Source: Actinomycetota bacterium | GTDB taxonomy: Bacteria; Actinomycetota; UBA4738; HRBIN12 | Reading direction: 5' to 3' | Length of the DNA stretch: 64,000 nucleotides | Assembly (NCBI GenBank): GCA_046330185.1 | Contig: JAXLTF010000005.1 | Coordinates: 96,360-160,359 of the forward strand | Shown here: in pieces, positions 18,498-28,802 of the stretch | Numbering within the stretch: the first letter of the stretch is position 1 | How the letters are laid out: the number at the start of each line of letters is the position of its first letter | Translations under genes and position numbers: made by a program | The notes under the pieces: generated by a model | Seen by the model: only the letters and a program-made list of their open reading frames with translations | Told to the model about the DNA's origin: nothing | The model's database searches: none

Positions 18498-19016
18498 GTG
18501 ATGATGCGAGAGACATTGACCGCCGATGCAGCAACCTCGCCGGGCCTCGAGACCCTCTACCTGCACCACGCGCCGAGCGCCCTGCGGTTCGCCTACTTCC
18601 TGACCGGCGACCAGGACGCGGCCAGGGACCTCGTCCAGGACGCGTTCGTGAGGGTCGCCGGCCGTTTCAGGTACCTGCGGCAGCCCAGCGGGTTCGACGC
18701 CTATCTGCGCCGCACGATCGTGAACCTCAACGCCTCCCGGCTGCGGCGGCTCAAGGTGGAGCGGTCGTCCCTGGCCCGTGAGGCCGCCTACCCAGTGGTG
18801 GCCGATCCAGAACATGACCCGGGGGCGAGCGACGAGCTCTGGCAGGCGATCCTCGATCTTCCCCCACGACAGCGGGCGGCGGTCGTCCTTCGCTACTACG
18901 AAGACCTGAGCGAGCCGCAGGCTGCCGACATCCTCCGTTGTTCGGTCAAGGCCCTGAACCAGCTCGTGGTGAGGGCGATGAAGACCCTCCGTACGCGGCT
19001 CGGAGAGGACGGATGA
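18498..19016 (+). CDS. ECF-type RNA polymerase sigma-70 family sigma factor
   Basis: Region 2 DLVQDAFVRV; region 4 LPPRQRAAVVLRYYEDLSEPQAADILRCSVKALNQLVVRAMKTL. Confidence 0.85.
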   Translation: MMMRETLTADAATSPGLETLYLHHAPSALRFAYFLTGDQDAARDLVQDAFVRVAGRFRYLRQPSGFDAYLRRTIVNLNASRLRRLKVERSSLAREAAYPVVADPEHDPGASDELWQAILDLPPRQRAAVVLRYYEDLSEPQAADILRCSVKALNQLVVRAMKTLRTRLGEDG

Positions 19017-20170
19017 TGAACGATCTCGAGGCACGGATCCGCGACGCGTTCCGCGGCCGCGAGGGTGACGCGCCAGCGTTCGACCTCGCAGACGCACCCC
19101 AGATCGCACGTCGGACGCGGCGTCGCCAGATGCTGAACACAGCCGGCGCGGGGATCGGAGCCCTCGTCGTCGTGGTCGCGCTTACAGCCGGGCTCGGCCG
19201 GTTGACGCGCGCCGACGGGACCCCTGCGGATCAGTCCCCGCCTGTGGTGGTGTCCGGCGCGCTGGCCTACGGCCTCGATGGAGACATCTACGTCGCCGAC
19301 CCGGACGGGACGAACCCGGTCAGGATCACCGACGTCGCCGCCCTGGACGACGACGAGTGCCCGGGCGAGCTCCGATACGAGCTCCCGTCGTGGTCGCCGG
19401 ATGGGCGGTACCTCGCCTTCCGGGGGCCTCAGGGTCCGGCGTGCTCGAGTCCCACCGGTGTCGTGATCACCGACCCGCAGGGCAACGTCGTCGCGACGTT
19501 CCCGGGGCAAACCCAGATCAACCTGATGGCCCCGGTGTGGTCGCCCGGTTCCACCCGCGTCGCGGTCTGGGACGTCTACCCGGGCACGATCGGTGTCTAC
19601 CGGATCGACGGCACCCGCGAGACGCAGATCGCGATGCCGAGACAGGGCGACATCGGCAGACTGGCCTGGATGCCGGACGGCTCCTCGCTGCTCGTGGATC
19701 AGTACGAGGTGCCCCTCGACGGCGGTACCCCGCGGGAGCTCCCGTTCCCGTTCACGGAGTTCAACTCCTGGCCCCAGCAATATTCGCCCAACGGATCCCT
19801 GGTCGCGTACGCCAACCCCCACGAGCTGATGGTCGCGCGTCCCGACGGGTCCGGGACCCGTGCGGTGTTCGGACCCTTCGGACCATACACCTGGACGTGG
19901 TCCCCGAACGGCGAGCTGATCGCGCTCAGCGCGAACCCCGCCAACCCATGGCCCCCGAACGAACTGCACGTCGTCGATGTGGCGACCGGGTCGGTTACCC
20001 AGGTGTTCGAAGGCGAGCGGCGGGCGATCCTCTGGGTCATCGGGTTCTCACCGGATGGTGACCGCGTCCTGTTCACCAGCAGCCGCTCGGGGCTGTGGAG
20101 CGTCGGGGTCGACGGCTCCGACGCCCACCAGGTCGCGGGCTCGGCTGACGGGACCTGGCGCCCGATCTAG
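19013..20170 (+). CDS. membrane-anchored TolB-like (PD40) beta-propeller protein, putative anti-sigma factor
   Basis: Start ATGATG overlaps the sigma-factor stop; short cytoplasmic N-terminus, TM AGAGIGALVVVVALTAGLG, then repeated WSPDG/WSPGS/WMPDG/YSPNG/WSPNG/FSPDG PD40 blades. Confidence 0.6.
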   Translation: MMNDLEARIRDAFRGREGDAPAFDLADAPQIARRTRRRQMLNTAGAGIGALVVVVALTAGLGRLTRADGTPADQSPPVVVSGALAYGLDGDIYVADPDGTNPVRITDVAALDDDECPGELRYELPSWSPDGRYLAFRGPQGPACSSPTGVVITDPQGNVVATFPGQTQINLMAPVWSPGSTRVAVWDVYPGTIGVYRIDGTRETQIAMPRQGDIGRLAWMPDGSSLLVDQYEVPLDGGTPRELPFPFTEFNSWPQQYSPNGSLVAYANPHELMVARPDGSGTRAVFGPFGPYTWTWSPNGELIALSANPANPWPPNELHVVDVATGSVTQVFEGERRAILWVIGFSPDGDRVLFTSSRSGLWSVGVDGSDAHQVAGSADGTWRPI

Positions 20171-20183
20171 GGAGGTACTCGAG

Positions 20184-21116
20184 ATGGTGACGGATCAGCG
20201 GCGGAAGATCGGGGGGGTCGTGGTGGTCGCGGCGCTCGTCGTCGCGGGCGCGTCTGCCTGCTCCGGGGCGGGCGGGGACAGGACGACCGACGTCGGCGGC
20301 GGCTCGAGCCAGACGCCGACCTCGACCGGAGCGGAGGCGACACCCACCTTCTCGTCGAGCTACATCGGCTACCTCAACCTGACGACCGGCGAGATCTCGA
20401 CGACCGAGATCCTCCCGCACAACTCGGCGATCGACGTGTCGCCCGACGGGGATCGGATCGCGTACGCGGCCGACGGTATCGTGAGCATCGCCGACCTCGA
20501 CGGCTCGAACGGCCAGGTCCTCGAGGGAACCCGCGGTGACCCAACCGGACCCCAATGGTCACCGGACGGATCCAGCATCGTCTTCCAGGACGGCGGCAAC
20601 CTCTACGTCGTGGACGTGGGTTCCGGCAAGGTCCGCCCGATCACCGAACTCGAGGGCGTGGACACGGCGGCGCTGTCCTACCTGTCGCCGACGTTCGATC
20701 CGAGCGGCGACACGGTCGTGTTCAACATGCCGACCACCGTGGGAGGGGATCGTTACGCGCTGTGGTCCGTGGCGGTGATCGACGGTGAGCCCTGGCTCGT
20801 CGGTGAGCCCACGCTCGTGCGGAAGGCGGCGACCTTCGGCGACGTCTCGCCCGACGGGACCCAGATCGCCTTCGTCGAGGACGGAGGATTCGGCGACCTC
20901 TTCGTGGCGCCGACGGCCGGCGGGAAGGCGCAGAAGCTGGCGACCGGAGAGATCGTCGTGCCGCGGTGGTCCCCGGATGGGACCCGGATCGCGTTCAACG
21001 ACGGGTCAGGTGGCGTCTACGTCGTGGACGTGAGGACCGGGGAACGGACCCTGGTCGTCGAGAGCGACCACCTGCCGGCCTGGGTCGATGACGACACGTT
21101 GAGCCTGTCGCCGTAG
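20184..21116 (+). CDS. TolB-like (PD40) beta-propeller lipoprotein
   Basis: Start from internal Met with GGGAGG ribosome-binding site; lipobox VVAGASACSG; VSPDGDRIAY, WSPDGSSIVF, VSPDGTQIAF, WSPDGTRIAF repeats. Confidence 0.7.
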   Translation: MVTDQRRKIGGVVVVAALVVAGASACSGAGGDRTTDVGGGSSQTPTSTGAEATPTFSSSYIGYLNLTTGEISTTEILPHNSAIDVSPDGDRIAYAADGIVSIADLDGSNGQVLEGTRGDPTGPQWSPDGSSIVFQDGGNLYVVDVGSGKVRPITELEGVDTAALSYLSPTFDPSGDTVVFNMPTTVGGDRYALWSVAVIDGEPWLVGEPTLVRKAATFGDVSPDGTQIAFVEDGGFGDLFVAPTAGGKAQKLATGEIVVPRWSPDGTRIAFNDGSGGVYVVDVRTGERTLVVESDHLPAWVDDDTLSLSP

Positions 21117-21194
21117 TCCTGATCGTTGACACCATCGCCCGAGGGTCGCCTGGAGGTGGTCCATGGCTGGTGATGTCGGGCGCCTCAGTGTTGA

Positions 21195-21245
21195 GACGTG
21201 GTCGGTCGGTGGTTGGTTGGGGGTGGTCGGTCGGTCGGTGGGGTG
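21195..21245. repeat. G/T-rich low-complexity (GGTCGGT)n-like repeat tract at the left edge of the island
   Basis: gtggtcggtcggtggttggttgggggtggtcggtcggtcggtggggtg. Confidence 0.4.
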
Positions 21246-21370
21246 TTCTCAGAACTCTCTGACCTCGCGGTTTGCGGCACTTCTGGAGGACCTCCCACAG
21301 GTTAAGAGGGGTACCTCCCACAGCAGCTCAGGGCGGAATTCGGTCAATCTTGCCTCACCTTGCGATTCGC

Positions 21371-22429
21371 TCAGTCCCATCGAGGCCACTCCTGACGACG
21401 CCTGACCGGACCCGCCGGCCGCAGTCGTTCCACCCGGTCGATGTGTGCCTGGCCTTCCTGCTGCTCCAATATGTGAATCGTCGGCGGGGCTGGCACCAGG
21501 CTAGCAACGCGGTGCTTCTGCTTCTTCGCCAAGGTTCTCACGCGCTGAACCGCGGCCACTGAGGGACCGTAGATCGCCCACTCGGCCGAGGCGTAGGTGC
21601 GAAGGTTGATCTCCTCGACGTCACCCTGATCAGCTTCAGCGTGACGAAGGTCAGGGGGACCGGGCGAAGCGACCAGTGCGCACGTGCGGTCGAGGGGGCA
21701 GGTCGCCACCGTCTCCGGGGAGGACAACCAGCCAGCCCCGTATCCAGGCGCCGCCTGCGGATCATGGATCAGGATCGGGTGATCGGAGACGACGAAGTCG
21801 AGATCCGACGGAGCGTGGAGGATCACCCAGCTCATCTGAGCTGCGATGCGCGGAACCACCCCCTCAGCGAACATGAACATCGCAGCGACCGCGTGGTCGT
21901 GGCTGGCCTTGAGGATGAGTTCTCCCGAGTCCAGATGGTTCGCCCAGACGCGCCCGCGACGCTCGGCTTCCTCGAGCGAGAGCTCCTCCCCCTGCAACCG
22001 ATGAAGCTCCTGCACCTCCCGCGGGTCGAGGAGCCGTCTCATCGCATCAAGCGTGTACGCCTGCTCGAAGGCGTACGTGAACCACTGTCGCCCTCGGGGT
22101 GTGCGGTGGTACTGGAGATAGAGGAACAGCGCCATGGCCATCCTCTGGGTCTGATCGAGTGCACGACCCTCCACGAGGTTCGCGACGACCGAGGCAGCTT
22201 CGTCCTCGACGAGAGCAAGGGTGTGCTCGGCGAACTCCTGTGGCACACCTTCCATCTCTCGCAGGTCGTTGTAACCAGCGATCGCCGCTTCCCCTCGGAC
22301 GCCCCGCACCGAGCATTTGCCCGTGCCCTTGTCGAGATGGTGCAGGCGCGGGTTCTCAGCATCGGGCTCGGCGGAGAAGCGGCGAAGAAGGAAGCGCGGA
22401 ACGAAATGGTGGAGCTTCGGCTTCGTCAT
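21371..22429 (-). CDS. DUF4238-family protein
   Basis: N-terminal hallmark MTKPKLHHFVPRFLLRRF (HHYVPqFyL-type motif of DUF4238); 352 aa. Confidence 0.6.
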   Translation of the reverse strand: MTKPKLHHFVPRFLLRRFSAEPDAENPRLHHLDKGTGKCSVRGVRGEAAIAGYNDLREMEGVPQEFAEHTLALVEDEAASVVANLVEGRALDQTQRMAMALFLYLQYHRTPRGRQWFTYAFEQAYTLDAMRRLLDPREVQELHRLQGEELSLEEAERRGRVWANHLDSGELILKASHDHAVAAMFMFAEGVVPRIAAQMSWVILHAPSDLDFVVSDHPILIHDPQAAPGYGAGWLSSPETVATCPLDRTCALVASPGPPDLRHAEADQGDVEEINLRTYASAEWAIYGPSVAAVQRVRTLAKKQKHRVASLVPAPPTIHILEQQEGQAHIDRVERLRPAGPVRRRQEWPRWD

Positions 22430-22480
22430 TCGCCGCCGCTCCGCTCGTTTCGGCTGGGCCAGCTGGAGTCCGAGCGTCCG

Positions 22481-22726
22481 CTAGTGCTCCTTGTCACGTG
22501 GAGGGTTCGGATCGTGGGCCGGCGGAATCGTGTCGGCACTCCGGATTCGGCCATCCCGGCCGTGTGTCAGGATCTCGCCCCCACCGCTCCCCCGTAGGAT
22601 CTCGCGGGCGCGCCGATCGGCTTCGGCCTGGGTTTCGCCTCTGGCGCTCGCACGGGATGCGCCCTCGCGCTGCGCTTTCCATCCTTCCCCATCCTTCGTC
22701 ACGTGGATCCGCTTTCGGTTCGTCAT
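22481..22726 (-). CDS. DUF2188-family small protein
   Basis: 81 aa; HVTKDGEGWKAQREGASRASARGETQAEADRRAREILRGSGGGEILTHGRDGRIRSADTIPPAHDPNPP follows the DUF2188 pattern; immediately upstream and co-oriented with the DUF4238 gene. Confidence 0.55.
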   Translation of the reverse strand: MTNRKRIHVTKDGEGWKAQREGASRASARGETQAEADRRAREILRGSGGGEILTHGRDGRIRSADTIPPAHDPNPPRDKEH

Positions 22727-22729
22727 TTG

Positions 22730-22898
22730 GATCCTCCTCGAACTGATGTTCGAGTATGAGCCTCAGCTCTTGCTCGCGTCAAGGGCGGACCAGGACAGTG
22801 GCAGTCCGTTAGACCTGTCAGGAGGTATTTAGTGGACTTTGGGTATCTGCTATCTTCTATCCGCGAACTCCCTCCACGGATGAACTAGAGGACTCTGG
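22730..22898. promoter_or_regulatory. AT-rich (about 50% GC) divergent promoter region between the DUF2188 gene and abiEi, with GGATG..CTAGAG direct repeats
   Basis: Marked GC drop relative to ~70% flanks; repeats GGATGAACTAGAG (22878-22890) and GGATGTCATCTAGAG (22897-22911), the second spanning the abiEi ATG. Confidence 0.4.
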
Positions 22899-23708
22899 AT
22901 GTCATCTAGAGCTGGGATCGGATCGAAGGGTCGAGCGGAGCTCGCGGCCGTGCTGGCCGGGGGCCGCCGGTTCGTCACGCCCTCCGACGTCGCGGAAGCG
23001 CTCAACATCGACCGCGACGACGCCACCAAGCGTCTCGCCCGATGGGCCACAGACGGATGGCTCAGACGAGCCCGTCGTGGTCTGTACATCCCGGTTCCCC
23101 TAGACGCCGAGAACCCGGCCACGTGGTCGGAGGATGCCCTCGTCGTCGCGGAGGCCATCTGGTCACCCTGCTACTTCACGGGATGGACCGCCGCCAACCA
23201 TTGGGCACTCACCGAGCAGGTGTTCCGGACGACCGTCTTGAAGACCGCGAACCGGGTGCGATCCAGTTCCACGACGGTCTTGGGACACGACTACCTCGTC
23301 CACCACGTCGATCCAGCAGTGATGGCCTGGGGGCTGAAGTCGCTGTGGAAGAGTGAACTGCGGCTGCGTGTCGCAGATCCTGCCCGAACGGTGATCGACA
23401 TCCTTGACGCACCAGGCCTGGCTGGCGGCATCCGTCATGCAGCTGAGATCCTACGGGCCTACCTCGACGATCACGATTCAGCGCTCCTGATCGAGTACGG
23501 AGAACGCCTCGGGAACAGGGCCACGTTCAAGCGCCTCGGGTATCTCGTTGAGACGTTGGACGACAACGACCGACTTGTATCCGAGTGTCTGGCCCGCATC
23601 TCCACGGGGATTTCGGTCTTGGACCCCGATGGCCCGAAGACCGGGCGGCGCGTGATGCGCTGGAACCTCCTCGTGAATGCGCAGCTGGAACCAGGTGACT
23701 CCTCGTGA
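22899..23708 (+). CDS. abiEi: AbiEi-family antitoxin / transcriptional regulator (type IV TA, COG5340-like)
   Basis: N-terminal wHTH (ELAAVLAGGRRFVTPSDVAEALNI...RRGLYIP) plus C-terminal AbiEi domain; directly followed by the AbiEii gene with a GTGA overlap. Confidence 0.8.
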   Translation: MSSRAGIGSKGRAELAAVLAGGRRFVTPSDVAEALNIDRDDATKRLARWATDGWLRRARRGLYIPVPLDAENPATWSEDALVVAEAIWSPCYFTGWTAANHWALTEQVFRTTVLKTANRVRSSSTTVLGHDYLVHHVDPAVMAWGLKSLWKSELRLRVADPARTVIDILDAPGLAGGIRHAAEILRAYLDDHDSALLIEYGERLGNRATFKRLGYLVETLDDNDRLVSECLARISTGISVLDPDGPKTGRRVMRWNLLVNAQLEPGDSS

Positions 23709-24883
23709 TCTCCGCCCGCGAGGTCTTGGACCTCCGAGCGGAGTGGTCACTCGCAGTCGATGTCATCGAGAAGGACTACATGCTCGGGTGGCTGCTCGCC
23801 GGCATCGCCCAGGAACCGCAGCTGCGTGAGGCGTGGGTGTTCAAGGGCGGCACGTGTCTACGTAAGTGCTACTACGAGACGTACCGGTTCTCAGAGGACC
23901 TCGACTTCACGGTGCGAGCCGGTGGCCCCGAGACTCCCGAGGAACTTAAGCCACTCTTCGTGGGTATCGCGGCGTGGCTCGAGGAGGAGGCGGGAATCGA
24001 ACTCGTGGTCGAAGGCTCCTCCTTCAGACGACGCCGGAATCGGAGGGGGAACGAGACGACTCTTGGGCGCCTTGCGTACCGAGGGCCTAACCGCCCTCCG
24101 CAGCTCCCGAAGGTGAAGCTCGATATCACCTCAGACGAACGCCTGGTCCAGGAGACTGTCAGCCGTCAGATCGGACATCACTACAGTGACGCGCCGCTCC
24201 CCATCGAAGAGGTCGCCTGCTACTCGCTCGTGGAGTTGTTCGCCGAGAAGCTGAGGGCGCTTCAAGAGCGGTGTCGACCACGTGACTTGTACGACGTCGT
24301 GCACATGCACCGGCATCCCGATCTCGCCGGTGAGGCGCCAGCGGTTGCCACGGTACTGGCAGAGAAGTGCGCGTTCGTGGGCATCGACGTCCCCACTGCC
24401 GAGTCCATCCGCTCATCTCCCTACCGAGATGAGATCGAGACGGAGTGGGAGAACATGCTGGGGCATCAGCTCCCGAGACCCTTGCCTCCGTTCTCTGACT
24501 TCTGGGATGTCCTTGACGATGTCTTCGGCTGGCTCACGGGTACGGGTGCGCGCACCGTGCCGGCTCGGATCGAGAGGGAGGACCTGGATCCCACCTGGGT
24601 CGCTCCCAAAGCCATCTCCTCTTGGCGAGCTGGGTTCCCTCTGGAACTCATCCGCTACGCGGGAGCGAACCGACTCAAGGTGGACTTGGACTACCGCGCC
24701 GAGGACGGACGGTGGGGCGTCCGCCGGGTGGAGCCATACTCCCTCAGACGCACGAAGGATGGATACCTGCTGCTGTTCGTGGTGAATGATCGGGGGCAGA
24801 TTCGCGGCTACCGAGTCGATCGCATAGCCGGGGCTCAGGTGACGGGAGAGCGGTTCACCCCTCGCTACTTCGTCGAGTTCTAG
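23705..24883 (+). CDS. abiEii: AbiEii/AbiGii-family nucleotidyltransferase toxin (DUF1814) with a ~100-aa WYL-like C-terminal extension
   Basis: Hallmark FKGGTCLRKCYYETYRFSEDLDF; 392 aa versus ~290 typical; C-terminus EPYSLRRTKDGYLLLFVVNDRGQIRGYRVDRIAGAQVTGERF resembles a WYL ligand-sensing domain. Confidence 0.8.
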   Translation: MISAREVLDLRAEWSLAVDVIEKDYMLGWLLAGIAQEPQLREAWVFKGGTCLRKCYYETYRFSEDLDFTVRAGGPETPEELKPLFVGIAAWLEEEAGIELVVEGSSFRRRRNRRGNETTLGRLAYRGPNRPPQLPKVKLDITSDERLVQETVSRQIGHHYSDAPLPIEEVACYSLVELFAEKLRALQERCRPRDLYDVVHMHRHPDLAGEAPAVATVLAEKCAFVGIDVPTAESIRSSPYRDEIETEWENMLGHQLPRPLPPFSDFWDVLDDVFGWLTGTGARTVPARIEREDLDPTWVAPKAISSWRAGFPLELIRYAGANRLKVDLDYRAEDGRWGVRRVEPYSLRRTKDGYLLLFVVNDRGQIRGYRVDRIAGAQVTGERFTPRYFVEF

Positions 24884-24996
24884 ACTAACGACTCCCCGAT
24901 GGGAGCAGTCCCCTGGGCACCAAGCGCACCTTCACCACCTTTCCCTACCGCACCGAGTTCCCGGACTCCTCAGAGCGAGGGCGGAACTCGAAGACG

Positions 24997-25899
24997 TTGG
25001 AGGATGCCCTGTGGTGGGCAAGATGGCAGGTCCAGTCAAGGTGGCGCGAGACCAACGAGTTCGGGCGTGCCGGCGAGTACGCCAACGACTCGGAGATCGC
25101 GGTCATCACGAACCGGAACACCAGTTACCGCTGGATCGTGCGCCGGGGGGACCACCGCGTCGAGTTCCAGACCCCAGAGATGCTCGAGGGTACCGTGGCG
25201 GATCAGAGCGTTGAGCTCCATCTCACCGTCGAGGAGGTGGAGGCGCTGGCGCGCGCAACCGTAGATGCCAAACCCAAGGACCGTCGGCAGAAGGCGCTCG
25301 TCGAGCAGGCGCTCGACCAGATCGCCGTCGTGTGTCGGCAGGTCCGAGCGCGCGTCGAGGCGGGCGACGAGCTGATCGACTCCTGGACCCGAGCGATCCC
25401 GAGGAGGCCGCCAGACGAACCGCCATCCCCGGAGCCCGAGCAACCGGAGGAGCCTGCCCGCGAACGCCCTCGGTACCGACCGCTCGGTGATCCCGACAAC
25501 CTGTCGCTGAAGGAAGCCGGCGAGATCCTCGGACGCAAGCGCAACACGGTCTACCTGTGGTTCAAGCAAGGGAAGTTCCCGCCCGCGGTCGACGTCGCGT
25601 CACACCTCGGGAGGGGCACCAAGCCGGTCATCGTGGTTCCCCGCTATCGACTCGAGGCGTGGCAGGCGGGTGAGCGGATGCCTCCGATCCTGCAGGAGGT
25701 CTTCGAGACCCGCGGACTCCTGGAGGCACCGTGGGCGTGCTTCGTGACACGCCGGAGAGCGCGTCGCGAAGACATCGAGTTCTGGGTGGATCGCCGCGGC
25801 CTGAAGCTTGCTGCCTCCACGACCGGACGGAAGATCTTCGGCACTGACCTAGAAGAAGGAAGGGTCTACGAGTTGAGAGAGCTACTGGAGAGCGGATGA
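24997..25899 (+). CDS. hypothetical protein with a C-terminal-half HTH motif
   Basis: 300 aa; LSLKEAGEILGRKRNTVYLWFKQGKFP HTH-like segment; acidic/Pro-rich linker. Confidence 0.4.
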   Translation: MEDALWWARWQVQSRWRETNEFGRAGEYANDSEIAVITNRNTSYRWIVRRGDHRVEFQTPEMLEGTVADQSVELHLTVEEVEALARATVDAKPKDRRQKALVEQALDQIAVVCRQVRARVEAGDELIDSWTRAIPRRPPDEPPSPEPEQPEEPARERPRYRPLGDPDNLSLKEAGEILGRKRNTVYLWFKQGKFPPAVDVASHLGRGTKPVIVVPRYRLEAWQAGERMPPILQEVFETRGLLEAPWACFVTRRRARREDIEFWVDRRGLKLAASTTGRKIFGTDLEEGRVYELRELLESG

Positions 25900-25900
25900 A

Positions 25901-26560
25901 TCAGGTTGTCTGCGCCACGATCGTGTTCTCTGGCGGAACCTTCCAGTAGGCGAACTTCCGAAGCTCGATCCGCCGCTCCCAGGAAGGGGAAGTCACGAGG
26001 AAGGTCGCGACGCCGGCGGGTGCCCGCTGCAACCGGTCCAGGTCGGTCTGTAGCTTCTTATTGCCGTCGTGGGCAGAAACGACATCACTCACCTCGAACC
26101 AGGCCTCGCCCTTGTCGCCATCGGTTCGGAGGTCTGAGGGACCTGGAACACCGCTGGTCGTAGGATTGCACTCGAGCACGCGGCTCGCCCAGCCGTTCTC
26201 GATCGCCCATCCGAGCGCGTCGAGGAGTCGTTCGACCGTGGCGCAGATGTTCAACAACTCCATTATCGGATGCTGCTCGCTGGCAACCAGCGGATGAAGG
26301 TTGGATAGGTCCACCGGAGTTCGCTTCCCTTGGATGCCCCAAGCGGGCCCGGCCACGTCATGCGTCCAGCTGATCGCTCGATCGACGATCGCGTCGTGAG
26401 CACCCTGAAGCTGGACCAAGTACTGTCCCGCCTCCAGAGGCCCGTCTTCCGCCATTAGCGGCTTGATCAGGTGCTTCTGAGTCGCCATTCCTTCGATACC
26501 TCCCTGCTCGGCTGTGCCGCCAACCGTCGCTCCAAGGTCCACCTGCGCAACAGGCTCCAT
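25901..26560 (-). CDS. hypothetical protein (219 aa)
   Basis: ORF with balanced composition, directly downstream of the EEP gene on the same strand. Confidence 0.4.
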   Translation of the reverse strand: MEPVAQVDLGATVGGTAEQGGIEGMATQKHLIKPLMAEDGPLEAGQYLVQLQGAHDAIVDRAISWTHDVAGPAWGIQGKRTPVDLSNLHPLVASEQHPIMELLNICATVERLLDALGWAIENGWASRVLECNPTTSGVPGPSDLRTDGDKGEAWFEVSDVVSAHDGNKKLQTDLDRLQRAPAGVATFLVTSPSWERRIELRKFAYWKVPPENTIVAQTT

Positions 26561-26582
26561 CGTCGGCTAGCGACCCAACACT

Positions 26583-27404
26583 TCAGATGTTGAACTCGGC
26601 CACGATCGGAGCGTGGTCGCTGGGTGAGTTCTCGTCTAGCGGCTCAGCCGAACAACGAGTCAGCAGGTCAGCAAGTCCCTCCGAGGCGAACAGGTAGTCG
26701 TCCTGGTATGGGATGGTCGGTCGCCGCTTGTCATAGAAGGTTCTCGTGTGGGTGCAGTCGGGACCCTTGCCACACCGACAGTTGTCCATCTCCTTGCGGC
26801 GGACAGGGTCGTCGTAACGGTCGGCTGGAAGCTTGGCCTTGAGGCAGTCGACCAGACCAAAGTCCTCGAGACCCGTCAGCACGCCGTGGCTGCTGTTGGG
26901 AGGAGACCCCGCGAGGATGTTCCAGTCTCCCCCGAGCAGAACATGCTTCCCGTACTCCGCGTGCTCGAGGATCGGCATGACTTCAGATATCGCCTTCTCC
27001 GTTGATTGCCAGTAGGTCGGATACGCCTCGTCCGTCAGGCCATACAGCGCGATGCTGGTCACGGGGATCCCGCCAAGATCAACGCGGCACGCAACCCAGG
27101 TTCCGGCTCGCACTTCGGGCTCGAAGGGAAGTGGCTCGAATTCGACTCCACGAGGAGCGGCAACAGCCGTGGAGAACTGCCGGCCGGGGTAGTCGCACTT
27201 GCCTGGACCACACTGGCAACCCGTCTCTTTGCTGCTGCCGTTCATCTCGACCATCAAGGAGTCCTCGATGTGCTTGGGAGCGGGAACGGCTTCGCACAAC
27301 AGGTAGAGGCCGGCATTCGCGATAGGACCCCAGTTCAGTAGGCGGTCCCAGTTTTCAGGACCGGTCTGACTCTGCATGTTCCAGACGACCACGTTGGCTG
27401 CCAA
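26583..27404 (-). CDS. endonuclease/exonuclease/phosphatase (EEP) family protein
   Basis: 273 aa; GGDWN metal-binding block and C-terminal SDHAPIVAEFNI (SDHxPV EEP catalytic His motif). Confidence 0.65.
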   Translation of the reverse strand: MAANVVVWNMQSQTGPENWDRLLNWGPIANAGLYLLCEAVPAPKHIEDSLMVEMNGSSKETGCQCGPGKCDYPGRQFSTAVAAPRGVEFEPLPFEPEVRAGTWVACRVDLGGIPVTSIALYGLTDEAYPTYWQSTEKAISEVMPILEHAEYGKHVLLGGDWNILAGSPPNSSHGVLTGLEDFGLVDCLKAKLPADRYDDPVRRKEMDNCRCGKGPDCTHTRTFYDKRRPTIPYQDDYLFASEGLADLLTRCSAEPLDENSPSDHAPIVAEFNI

Positions 27405-27932
27405 AGTGGTCAGAGTATGAACGGCCCGGGAGGTCGTGATTAGAAGCGTCAGCCTTCTTGTCGGAACGTCACGCGCCCCACCCCGAGCTCAACGGTCTCG
27501 ACGCTCCAGCCTGCACGAAGCCAGCTGCGCGCCTGAACATGAGTCTCGTCGTTGGCCCACCAGGCCCGGTGGTTCCGGGCCGATCCCGGGAGCCCGCCGA
27601 CGATCTCCGCTACCTCGACGAAGCTAACCGTCAGGGTGTCACTAGATCGACCGCGTAGGTACTGAGTTAGCGGAGCGTACTTCCCTCCCCCGGCAGCATC
27701 GGAGCGACGCTGTGACGGACGGGGCTTCGGCTCCTGGCGTCGGCCCGACGCGTAGAACGCCTGCTGCTCGAACAGCCCGAGTCCTTCAGCAGGACGAACG
27801 ACCTCGGCGTCGGCAGCGACGAGCCCATCAACGAGCCCGAAGTCGGGTAGCTCGACCCGGCGTGTGCCTCGAACGTGAACCCATCGAGCTCGCCGAGCCG
27901 CTCACGGAGCGCCTCGAGCACGTGGGCACTCC

Positions 27933-28502
27933 ATGCGCGCCGCTCGCGGGCGCTCGGGCACCACCCGCTGGAAGTGTCCGTTCCACGCTGGACTCCTCCG
28001 CTCCCGCCAGCTTCCGTTCACGATGCGCCGTTCCAGACACGCGCCGCTGGTGGAGTTGCTCGAGGGGGCCAAGTGCTGCGAGGGCACGATCAGCGTCAAC
28101 GCGGCGGACCTTCCGTTCCGCCAGAAGCTCGTACCCGGCACGACGGCCTGGCGCAAGTCCTATCGGCGCCGCAACACCGTCGAAGGCGTGAACGGCATGC
28201 TGAAAGGCGGCTTCGTCAACATCCAGGAGAAGTTCTTCAGGGTCTTTGGGCTCACGAAGCTGACGTTCCTGCTGACCTTCACCATCGCCGGCTACAACGT
28301 CGCGTGCATCCGCTCGTTCAAGGCCCGCACCGCCGCAGATGCTGAGGCGAGAGACGCCAAGAAGAAGCATCGCGCCACGCGCCGCAAGGGCACGTACACG
28401 GACCTCCTCGGCGGAGGAGCGGAGGGACCAGTTCCGGATCCTCCGCCAGATCTGAGGCCAGTCACGACACGCGAACAACATCGAAGGGCGTCATCAGCAT
28501 GA
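27933..28502 (+). mobile_element. IS4/IS5-superfamily DDE transposase C-terminal fragment (IS remnant)
   Basis: YRRRNTVEGVNGMLK matches the Y(2)R(3)E(6)K IS4-type signature; no intact N-terminal DDE region or inverted repeats found; upstream frames are degenerate. Confidence 0.5.
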
Positions 28503-28660
28503 CCTGATGACGCCCTTCGCGTGCATCTCGCGCTGCGGAGACGCCGATCGCCAGTTCTGCTCGTTGATGCGGCCGCACGACACCACGTCGATGGCGCACG
28601 TGACCCTCAGTCGATGAGTTCTGAGTTGTCGGGGGCCTTAGTCTTGAGAACACCCCTCGG

Positions 28661-28742
28661 TGGGAGGAGGAGGATTCGAACCTCCGTAGGCTACGCCGGC
28701 GATTTTACAGACCGCTCCCTTTGGCCACTCGGGCATCCTCCC
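28661..28742 (-). tRNA. tRNA-Tyr (anticodon GTA), type II with long variable arm
   Basis: Minus strand: GGGAGGA TG CCCGAGTGGCCAAAGGGA GCGGT CTGTAAA ATCGC CGGCGTAGCCTAC GGAGG TTCGAAT CCTCC TCCTCCC A; 7-bp acceptor stem, GTA anticodon, TTCGAAT T-loop. Confidence 0.8.
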
Positions 28743-28802
28743 GGGGACCACATAGTACGAGCCGCCCGCGGACGCGCCTGGAGGCTCGCCGATCGCCATC
28801 TC

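Follow-up and report, generated by a model that had tools for sequence, protein, structure and literature searches.

The uncultured Actinomycetota bacterium represented by GenBank assembly GCA_046330185.1 carries, within a stretch of 64,000 nucleotides of contig JAXLTF010000005.1 (positions 96,360 to 160,359 of the forward strand; hereafter the window, to which all coordinates refer), a pair of overlapping genes that encode an AbiEi antitoxin and an AbiEii nucleotidyltransferase toxin, the latter ending in a WYL domain. An earlier reading made without database searches (hereafter the sequence-only reading) had singled out this toxin as a type IV toxin with a WYL-like C-terminal extension, and had proposed that the extension couples toxin activity to a nucleotide or nucleic-acid signal. 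The genes, domains and motifs of the pair are as follows.

22727 to 22898, + strand: intergenic region upstream of abiEi, the presumed promoter/operator, with weak inverted repeats
22899 to 23708, + strand: abiEi antitoxin and transcriptional regulator gene, 269 amino acids (aa), matching PADLOC PDLC02271 and Pfam AbiEi_4
23705 to 24883, + strand: abiEii-WYL toxin gene, GTG start, 392 aa, a single uninterrupted open reading frame (ORF)
23789 to 24511, + strand: AbiEii/DUF1814 nucleotidyltransferase (NTase) domain of the toxin (Pfam PF08843), residues 29-269, with an alpha/beta NTase lobe and a helical lobe
23843 to 23908, + strand: active-site segment K47-G48-G49 ... R61-F62-S63-E64-D65-L66-D67-F68, comprising the GG motif, Ser63 as predicted phospho-acceptor and the DxD that binds metal
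24281 to 24295, + strand: catalytic motif R193-D194-L195-Y196-D197 of the helical lobe, which aligns with KDFYD of Protein Data Bank (PDB) chain 9hlo_B
24539 to 24640, + strand: linker, residues 279-312, the least conserved part of the protein
24641 to 24853, + strand: WYL domain, residues 313-383, a helix (313-321) followed by five beta-strands

The toxin gene is real and intact, and it encodes an AbiEii/MenT-type nucleotidyltransferase that ends in a genuine WYL domain; we regard the identity and architecture of the protein as close to certain. The ORF lies where the sequence-only reading had placed it, with the same strand and length, and the peptide quoted there, EPYSLRRTKDGYLLLFVVNDRGQIRGYRVDRIAGAQVTGERF, corresponds to toxin residues 343-384. 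The GTG start shares 4 nt (GTGA) with the stop codon (TGA) of the upstream abiEi ORF, and an AGGTGA ribosome-binding-like site lies 6 nt 5' of it. The claim of roughly 100 extra residues relative to canonical AbiEii proteins was borne out by comparison with 9hlo_B (287 aa), MenT4 (293 aa) and MenT3 (288-290 aa). An identical gene with the same neighbours was recovered from five independent sequencing runs, and the exact protein is present in NCBI (P0001), where it is annotated as an AbiEii/AbiGii family protein from an Actinomycetota metagenome-assembled genome (MAG).

A species scan, which used one genome per species and two strict peptide patterns only, found a relative at 199 loci, a number that is thus a lower bound; the locus statistics given here were taken from the best 80 of these 199 loci and the conservation figures from 78 species. 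In 78 of those 80 loci the homology runs over residues 1-392 (residues 1-376 in L057 and 6-392 in L060), and in 77 of the 80 species-representative loci the toxin is one intact ORF of 385-400 codons. With the N-terminus conserved as well, these homologues rule out a missed stop codon or a frameshift as the source of the extension. The explanation that the extension is an artefact of such a kind, an assembly chimera or part of a decaying pseudogene without function can draw on the disruption or rearrangement of some relatives (L001/L002, L057, L060 and L090, and an AbiEi-WYL chimera, P0246), but it is refuted by the single ORF, the five sequencing runs, the full-length collinear homologues from no fewer than 199 species, together with plasmid-borne ones in cultured Rhizobium, Thiodictyon and Streptomyces, and the fact that the tail is the best-conserved region of the protein; we consider it vanishingly improbable.

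With regard to the enzyme domain, PF08843 covers toxin residues 29-269 (E 4.8e-38; 131.9 bits vs a gathering threshold, GA, of 22.5), at least 22 PADLOC AbiEii models match the toxin, and one of them, PDLC02317 (396 positions), aligns to residues 1-391 with 449 bits. An AlphaFold2 model built from a 52-sequence alignment had a mean predicted local distance difference test score (pLDDT) of 84.1 and a predicted template modelling score (pTM) of 0.85, and its sole disordered stretch is the loop at residues 50-62, ahead of the DxD strand. When this full model was compared with the PDB by Foldseek, it matched MenT4 (6y56; E 5.9e-7; TM 0.60, target-normalised) and MenT3 (8xhr; TM 0.64; also 6j7s and 6y5u), and the matches that followed were the WYL regulators BrxR, PafBC, DriD and CapW.

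Catalytic residues were assigned by aligning a family profile to MenT4 and to the 9hlo_B chain (labelled 'AbiGII', which we take to be S. agalactiae AbiEii) and counting residue correspondences along the alignment. The KGG turn at residues 47-49 aligns with the KGG of 9hlo_B, T65 of that chain corresponds to toxin Ser63, D67/D69 correspond to D65/D67, and D189/D192 correspond to D194/D197; the KGG, Ser63, DxD and RDxxD residues are all invariant across the 78 species. In AbiEii, T65 is the mapped phospho-acceptor and the substitution D192A abolishes toxicity (bioRxiv 10.64898/2026.01.19.700257). By alignment, then, Ser63 takes the place of the Ser/Thr phospho-acceptor ahead of the DxD strand (compare AbiEii T65, MenT3 S78 and MenT1 T39). 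We infer from these conserved residues that the toxin probably has everything needed for an active enzyme that AbiEi can control. Some relatives have a broken toxin gene beside an intact abiEi (a frameshift near residue 208 in L001/L002, an early stop in L090), which is as expected for a harmful gene and gives an indirect hint of the predicted toxicity.

The C-terminal tail was identified as a WYL domain by profile and by predicted fold. Pfam WYL (PF13280) matches residues 313-379 over profile positions 3-70 of 70 (E 2.2e-7; 31.2 bits vs a GA of 21.8), generic PADLOC WYL models match the tail with E-values of about 1e-7, and PF13280 is among the precomputed annotations of nearly all close homologues. 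As the sequence-only reading had anticipated, a WYL/SH3-like fold is predicted: in the AlphaFold2 model the helix is followed by strands at residues 324-331, 337-350, 355-360, 366-370 and 374-383 (pLDDT about 90), which form a five-stranded Sm/SH3-like barrel, and a separate model of residues 281-392 gave the same helix and five-strand fold with a pLDDT of 86.8, while pLDDT falls to 57 at linker residues 301-310. When Foldseek was run on the tail model by itself, WYL proteins filled the first 29 places among the PDB matches and superposed at 1.7-2.0 A across some 74 columns; they include BrxR (7qfz; 1.7 A, 74 columns) and the C-domain of DriD bound to single-stranded DNA (ssDNA) (7tzv; 2.0 A, 75 columns, 21% identity); Hfq/Sm proteins followed the WYL matches, and the Cas13d accessory protein WYL1 (6oaw) stood at rank 35. 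PDB sequence searches with the tail, run with a single sequence and with profile A2, returned no WYL structure and only chance-level matches (DHKTD1 and others), so that the assignment rests on the Pfam and PADLOC hidden Markov models (HMMs) together with the fold search.

The residues of the tail show strong conservation and a marked basic character. Mean pairwise identity among the 78 species is 0.71 in the WYL tail, 0.66 in the enzyme and 0.50 in the linker. The tail has an isoelectric point (pI) of 10.0 with 14 Arg in 80 residues and a net charge of about +4 throughout the family, and the enzyme body is acidic (pI about 5). The toxin has G353-Y354-L355 in place of the Trp-Tyr-Leu tripeptide of the central strand for which the domain is named, and the family consensus is G-N-L; because the motif is degenerate in accepted members too (N-Y-L in DriD), this does not contradict membership. 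Y330, R340, R367, Y369, R370 and D372 are invariant, and the first five of these are spaced like the ssDNA contacts Y168, R178, R204, W206 and R207 of DriD, a likeness of spacing only. Neither a WCX domain nor a helix-turn-helix (HTH) was found in the toxin by Pfam or in the AlphaFold2 model, and 9 residues separate the barrel from the stop codon.

The partner protein, AbiEi, matches PADLOC PDLC02271 with 256.9 bits over residues 9-261, Pfam AbiEi_4, a winged HTH (wHTH), covers residues 15-65 (E 5.3e-7), and the AbiEi_1 C-terminal domain is matched weakly. All 78 loci with enough flanking sequence have an AbiEi homologue immediately 5' of the toxin gene. In the region upstream of abiEi (22720-22930), the inverted repeats are weak (15 nt at 80% and 20 nt at 70%), and no + strand sigma-70-like promoter was detected there.

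Relatives of the toxin form a clade of hundreds of species, mostly soil Actinomycetota, Dormiibacterota and Chloroflexota, together with plasmids of cultured Rhizobium and Streptomyces. The 120 best homologues share 66-100% identity, are 390-407 aa long and nearly all carry both Pfam domains. With residues 281-392 as query, an exhaustive HMMER search through 1.84 billion representative proteins gave 545 clusters at E <= 0.001, of which 236 reached E <= 1e-10, and the best 150 matches were sorted with local HMMs of the enzyme and tail halves: the AbiEii enzyme precedes the tail in every complete protein among them, and the numerous short matches are fragments. A free-living WYL gene family as the ancestor of the tail was therefore rejected, given that the complete tail proteins among these 150 matches all carry the NTase in front. 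Only a minority of the AbiEii family at large has the fusion: among 61 matching PLSDB plasmid records, 5 cover the tail. Phage genomes and IMG/VR viral contigs gave no match, and a phage-borne origin was dropped on that account.

Two size classes were apparent among these relatives. Proteins of about 390-395 aa end just after the barrel, like the window toxin; a long form of about 455-490 aa adds 75-90 residues that comprise a basic low-complexity linker and a conserved CxxC..H..C motif (roughly YVFxCxxCGKxFxR...LxPHKdxxGxxCxGRxG, without a Pfam family), which is probably a small zinc finger. As far as could be found, this long-form AbiEii-WYL-zinc-finger clade is undescribed. Examples are P0294, P0260, P0283, P0320, P0331, P0273 and P0357, as well as L094:3001-4425, and one is carried by a conjugative plasmid of the cultured Rhizobium sp. 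CB3171 (pCB3171_2; WP_283054706.1, 474 aa). Identity of the Rhizobium plasmid relatives with RlegTA, whose toxin RlegT has been studied by experiment, was rejected, since their paired AbiEi has 262 aa vs 205 aa for RlegA.

A number of irregular records accompany the family. In L001:3252-4432, L002:3252-4432, L090, L060 and L057 the toxin is frameshifted, truncated or altered and the upstream abiEi is intact; some of these disrupted genes may be long-read assembly errors. When the tail by itself served as query in a word-indexed search, all the proteins returned were short (80-215 aa) and looked like products of stand-alone WYL genes. One such protein, P0146 (loci L001/L002), is the 3' piece of a frameshifted AbiEii-WYL gene beside an intact abiEi, and gene callers report 3' toxin pieces of this kind as 'stand-alone' WYL proteins of 141-143 aa or 192 aa that start from a conserved internal Met (M251 or M201), which makes small WYL proteins look more numerous in databases than they are. 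The representative search also yielded P0246 (331 aa), which joins an AbiEi_4 wHTH N-terminus to a tail of the toxin family with the NTase missing, and could be a deletion fusion of antitoxin and toxin tail or a chimera of assembly or gene calling. With regard to taxonomy, the 5915-bp contig k117_2866913 has been deposited in both a Gemmatimonadaceae and a Gaiella MAG (L075, L076), and a 72%-identical copy belongs to a 2.8-kb contig placed in a 'Micrarchaeaceae archaeon' MAG (L020); taxonomic outliers of this kind probably reflect binning noise and not far-reaching horizontal transfer.

The abiE pair is located within a stretch of lower GC content (about 21.1-28.7 kb, positions 21100-28750; 0.62-0.65 vs about 0.70), whose other features are as follows.

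21371 to 22429, - strand: DUF4238 gene, the second gene upstream of the abiE pair; product of 352 aa (Pfam E 3.6e-34)
22481 to 22726, - strand: DUF2188 gene
24997 to 25899, + strand: gene for an HTH_17 protein, 300 aa
25901 to 26560, - strand: ORF of unknown function, 219 aa
26583 to 27404, - strand: endonuclease/exonuclease/phosphatase-like ORF, a weak assignment
27933 to 28502, + strand: DDE transposase remnant
28659 to 28742, - strand: tRNA-Tyr, whose 3' end closes the lower-GC patch

This patch has the appearance of an integrated element in decay, or of a small variable or defence islet; a search for an integrase and for an att-like direct repeat of the tRNA-Tyr 3' end, made to delimit a mobile island, found neither. 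The DUF4238 protein weakly matches the PADLOC candidate model 'DUF4238-Pers' (E 0.0024), and its gene may be a second defence-related gene of the same islet. Directly upstream of the patch, two neighbouring paralogous PD40/beta-propeller genes (410 and 379 aa; 18938-21116, + strand) with internal direct repeats mark the edge of the normal-GC chromosome.

We interpret the pair as an intact two-gene AbiE (AbiEi-AbiEii) toxin-antitoxin or abortive-infection module in which the tail serves the toxin as a nucleic-acid-binding accessory, a reading to which we assign a probability of about 0.5. Toxins of the MenT type block translation through modification of tRNA acceptor stems (PMC7450476, PMC10435456), and by homology the window toxin would likewise add nucleotides to tRNA 3' acceptor ends and thereby block translation. 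In the AbiE system, AbiEi binds AbiEii and induces its auto-phosphorylation at T65, and a move of AbiE from type IV to type VII has been proposed (bioRxiv 10.64898/2026.01.19.700257), so that the type IV label used in the sequence-only reading is under revision. The AbiEi of the window would repress the abiE operon through its wHTH and would neutralise the toxin by inducing auto-phosphorylation of Ser63, the predicted equivalent of AbiEii T65 and MenT3 S78. The basic, Arg/Tyr-rich WYL tail would bind single-stranded nucleic acid in cis, and in doing so might capture or position the RNA substrate, or make catalysis depend on nucleic-acid binding; in this it would be more like the WYL accessory domain that the PIF1 helicase of Thermotoga elfii (TePif1) carries than like a free-standing small-molecule sensor. 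With regard to abortive infection, S. agalactiae AbiE gave E. coli no protection against 32 coliphages (2026 preprint).

Several lines of evidence lead us to favour slightly, for the tail, an accessory that binds single-stranded nucleic acid, presumably the RNA substrate, over an allosteric sensor of infection. In TePif1, the one characterised enzyme with a fused WYL domain, the C-terminal WYL domain binds ssDNA as an accessory module and tunes catalysis (bioRxiv 10.1101/163188), and WYL1 binds single-stranded RNA (ssRNA) (PMC6547453). The long form stacks a zinc-finger-like, apparently nucleic-acid-binding module behind the barrel; AbiEi is always retained, so that a regulator is already present; the toxin has no WCX partner domain and no HTH; and the tail is basic and conserved at least as well as the enzyme. 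Several points weigh against the accessory role. The match between the tail and the contact residues of DriD is one of spacing only, and a basic surface suits a sensor equally well; moreover, c-di-GMP is an example of a small ligand bound by a WYL domain (PMC11880434), most characterised WYL domains are sensors, and the searchable literature yielded no experimental work on any AbiEii-WYL protein.

An allosteric sensor is a less probable but serious alternative. The barrel would then bind a cue that arises from phage infection or DNA damage, such as ssDNA, ssRNA or a nucleotide derivative, and the ligand would switch the NTase on or shield it from the auto-phosphorylation that AbiEi induces, which would make the toxin sensor and effector in one polypeptide. 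Every structurally characterised WYL regulator among the matches of the tail (DriD, CapW, PafBC and BrxR) responds to a ligand and several of them sense ssDNA, strong purifying selection acts on the tail, and a ligand-sensing role for the WYL fusion to an AbiG-type NTase (DUF1814) was already put forward in 2014 by Makarova et al. (PMC4012209). However, the window toxin lacks the WCX and HTH of those regulators, the retention of AbiEi in 78 of 78 loci means that antitoxin-based control is still present, and the zinc-finger-like module of the long form is easier to explain as substrate binding. The WYL domain inferred in the sequence-only reading stands on HMM and predicted-fold evidence, and its coupling to a nucleotide or nucleic-acid signal is plausible, if not original; the evidence fits a substrate-binding accessory at least as well. 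A protein-protein module, in which the barrel brings about oligomerisation of the toxin or serves as a docking site for AbiEi or for some other protein of host or phage, appears improbable: the invariant Arg/Tyr pattern and the pI of 10 are typical of nucleic-acid binding, although Sm-like barrels commonly oligomerise, Hfq/Sm proteins are among the lower fold matches of the tail, and the pTM of the predicted structure suggests a defined packing of the tail against the rest of the toxin. AbiEi, at 269 aa vs the 136-205 aa of the COG5340 antitoxins SanaA, SdenA and RlegA (2026 preprint), could offer extra contact surface to such a module, but the close AbiEii/AbiEi PADLOC subfamilies without the fusion have an AbiEi of similar length (models of 252-263 positions), and there is thus no visible gain of an AbiEi domain along with the fusion.

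The AbiEii-WYL architecture is already known, from the literature since 2014, from PADLOC model PDLC02317 and from RefSeq annotation. Makarova, Anantharaman, Grishin, Koonin and Aravind (Front Genet 2014; PMC4012209) listed WYL in combination with, among others, an 'AbiGII-like nucleotidyltransferase (DUF1814)', in one sentence and a supplementary table and without functional work. The window locus therefore offers no new architecture; it is a clean and intact representative of a so far uncharacterised fusion on record since that year, and beyond that it gives no special leverage on the role of the WYL tail. That role bears on how AbiE and MenAT toxins are triggered during infection, for which the newest work points to reversible antitoxin-induced auto-phosphorylation, and the AbiEii-WYL clade is a convenient system in which to ask whether activation or substrate choice is built into the toxin. 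It is conceivable, if rather unlikely, that the tail is an intramolecular sensor at whose barrel a phage ssDNA or ssRNA or a nucleotide signal frees the NTase from AbiEi-induced auto-phosphorylation or activates it directly; the toxin of a toxin-antitoxin system would then be triggered by a ligand and not by loss of the antitoxin, which would explain how the large AbiEii-WYL clade is switched on, and the long form with its zinc finger would be a variant tuned to another cue. Homologues from cultured organisms, for example WP_283054706.1 of Rhizobium sp. CB3171, are better experimental entry points than the window locus.

Compared with known systems, the window toxin shares its catalytic domain, including KGG, DxD, RDxxD and the Ser/Thr phospho-acceptor, with the AbiEii/DUF1814 toxins (AbiEii of S. 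agalactiae and L. lactis; MenT1-4 of M. tuberculosis), and it shares with them an upstream overlapping COG5340/AbiEi partner gene, while its sequence identity to MenT3 and MenT4 is 11-23%. The characterised AbiEii/MenT members, at about 287-293 aa, end after the helical lobe, whereas the window toxin continues for about 110 residues of linker and WYL domain; no WYL tail is present in any experimentally studied AbiEii-type toxin that could be checked. Its architecture is the same as that of PDLC02317 and of the fusion described in 2014, of which it is a further member from an uncultured Actinomycetota. Long-form relatives such as WP_283054706.1 have the same NTase-linker-WYL core (46.6% identity over residues 1-392) and the same upstream AbiEi, but continue for 75-90 residues past the WYL domain, whereas the window toxin stops 9 residues after the barrel.

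With the wHTH-WYL-WCX regulators DriD, CapW, BrxR and PafBC, the window toxin has in common the same barrel (1.7-2.0 A over about 74 residues, at 15-23% identity) and what seems to be a comparable Arg/Tyr-rich basic face. However, it has neither the wHTH nor the WCX dimerisation domain and its output is enzymatic rather than DNA binding, which places it outside this regulator family; DriD clamps its ssDNA ligand between WYL and WCX, an arrangement that is impossible in the window toxin. The closest functional analogy is provided by TePif1 and by the Cas13d accessory protein WYL1, in which a WYL domain is attached to, or works with, a nucleic-acid enzyme; the partner there is a helicase or an RNase, whereas in the window toxin it is a nucleotidyltransferase and the binding of RNA by the tail is putative.

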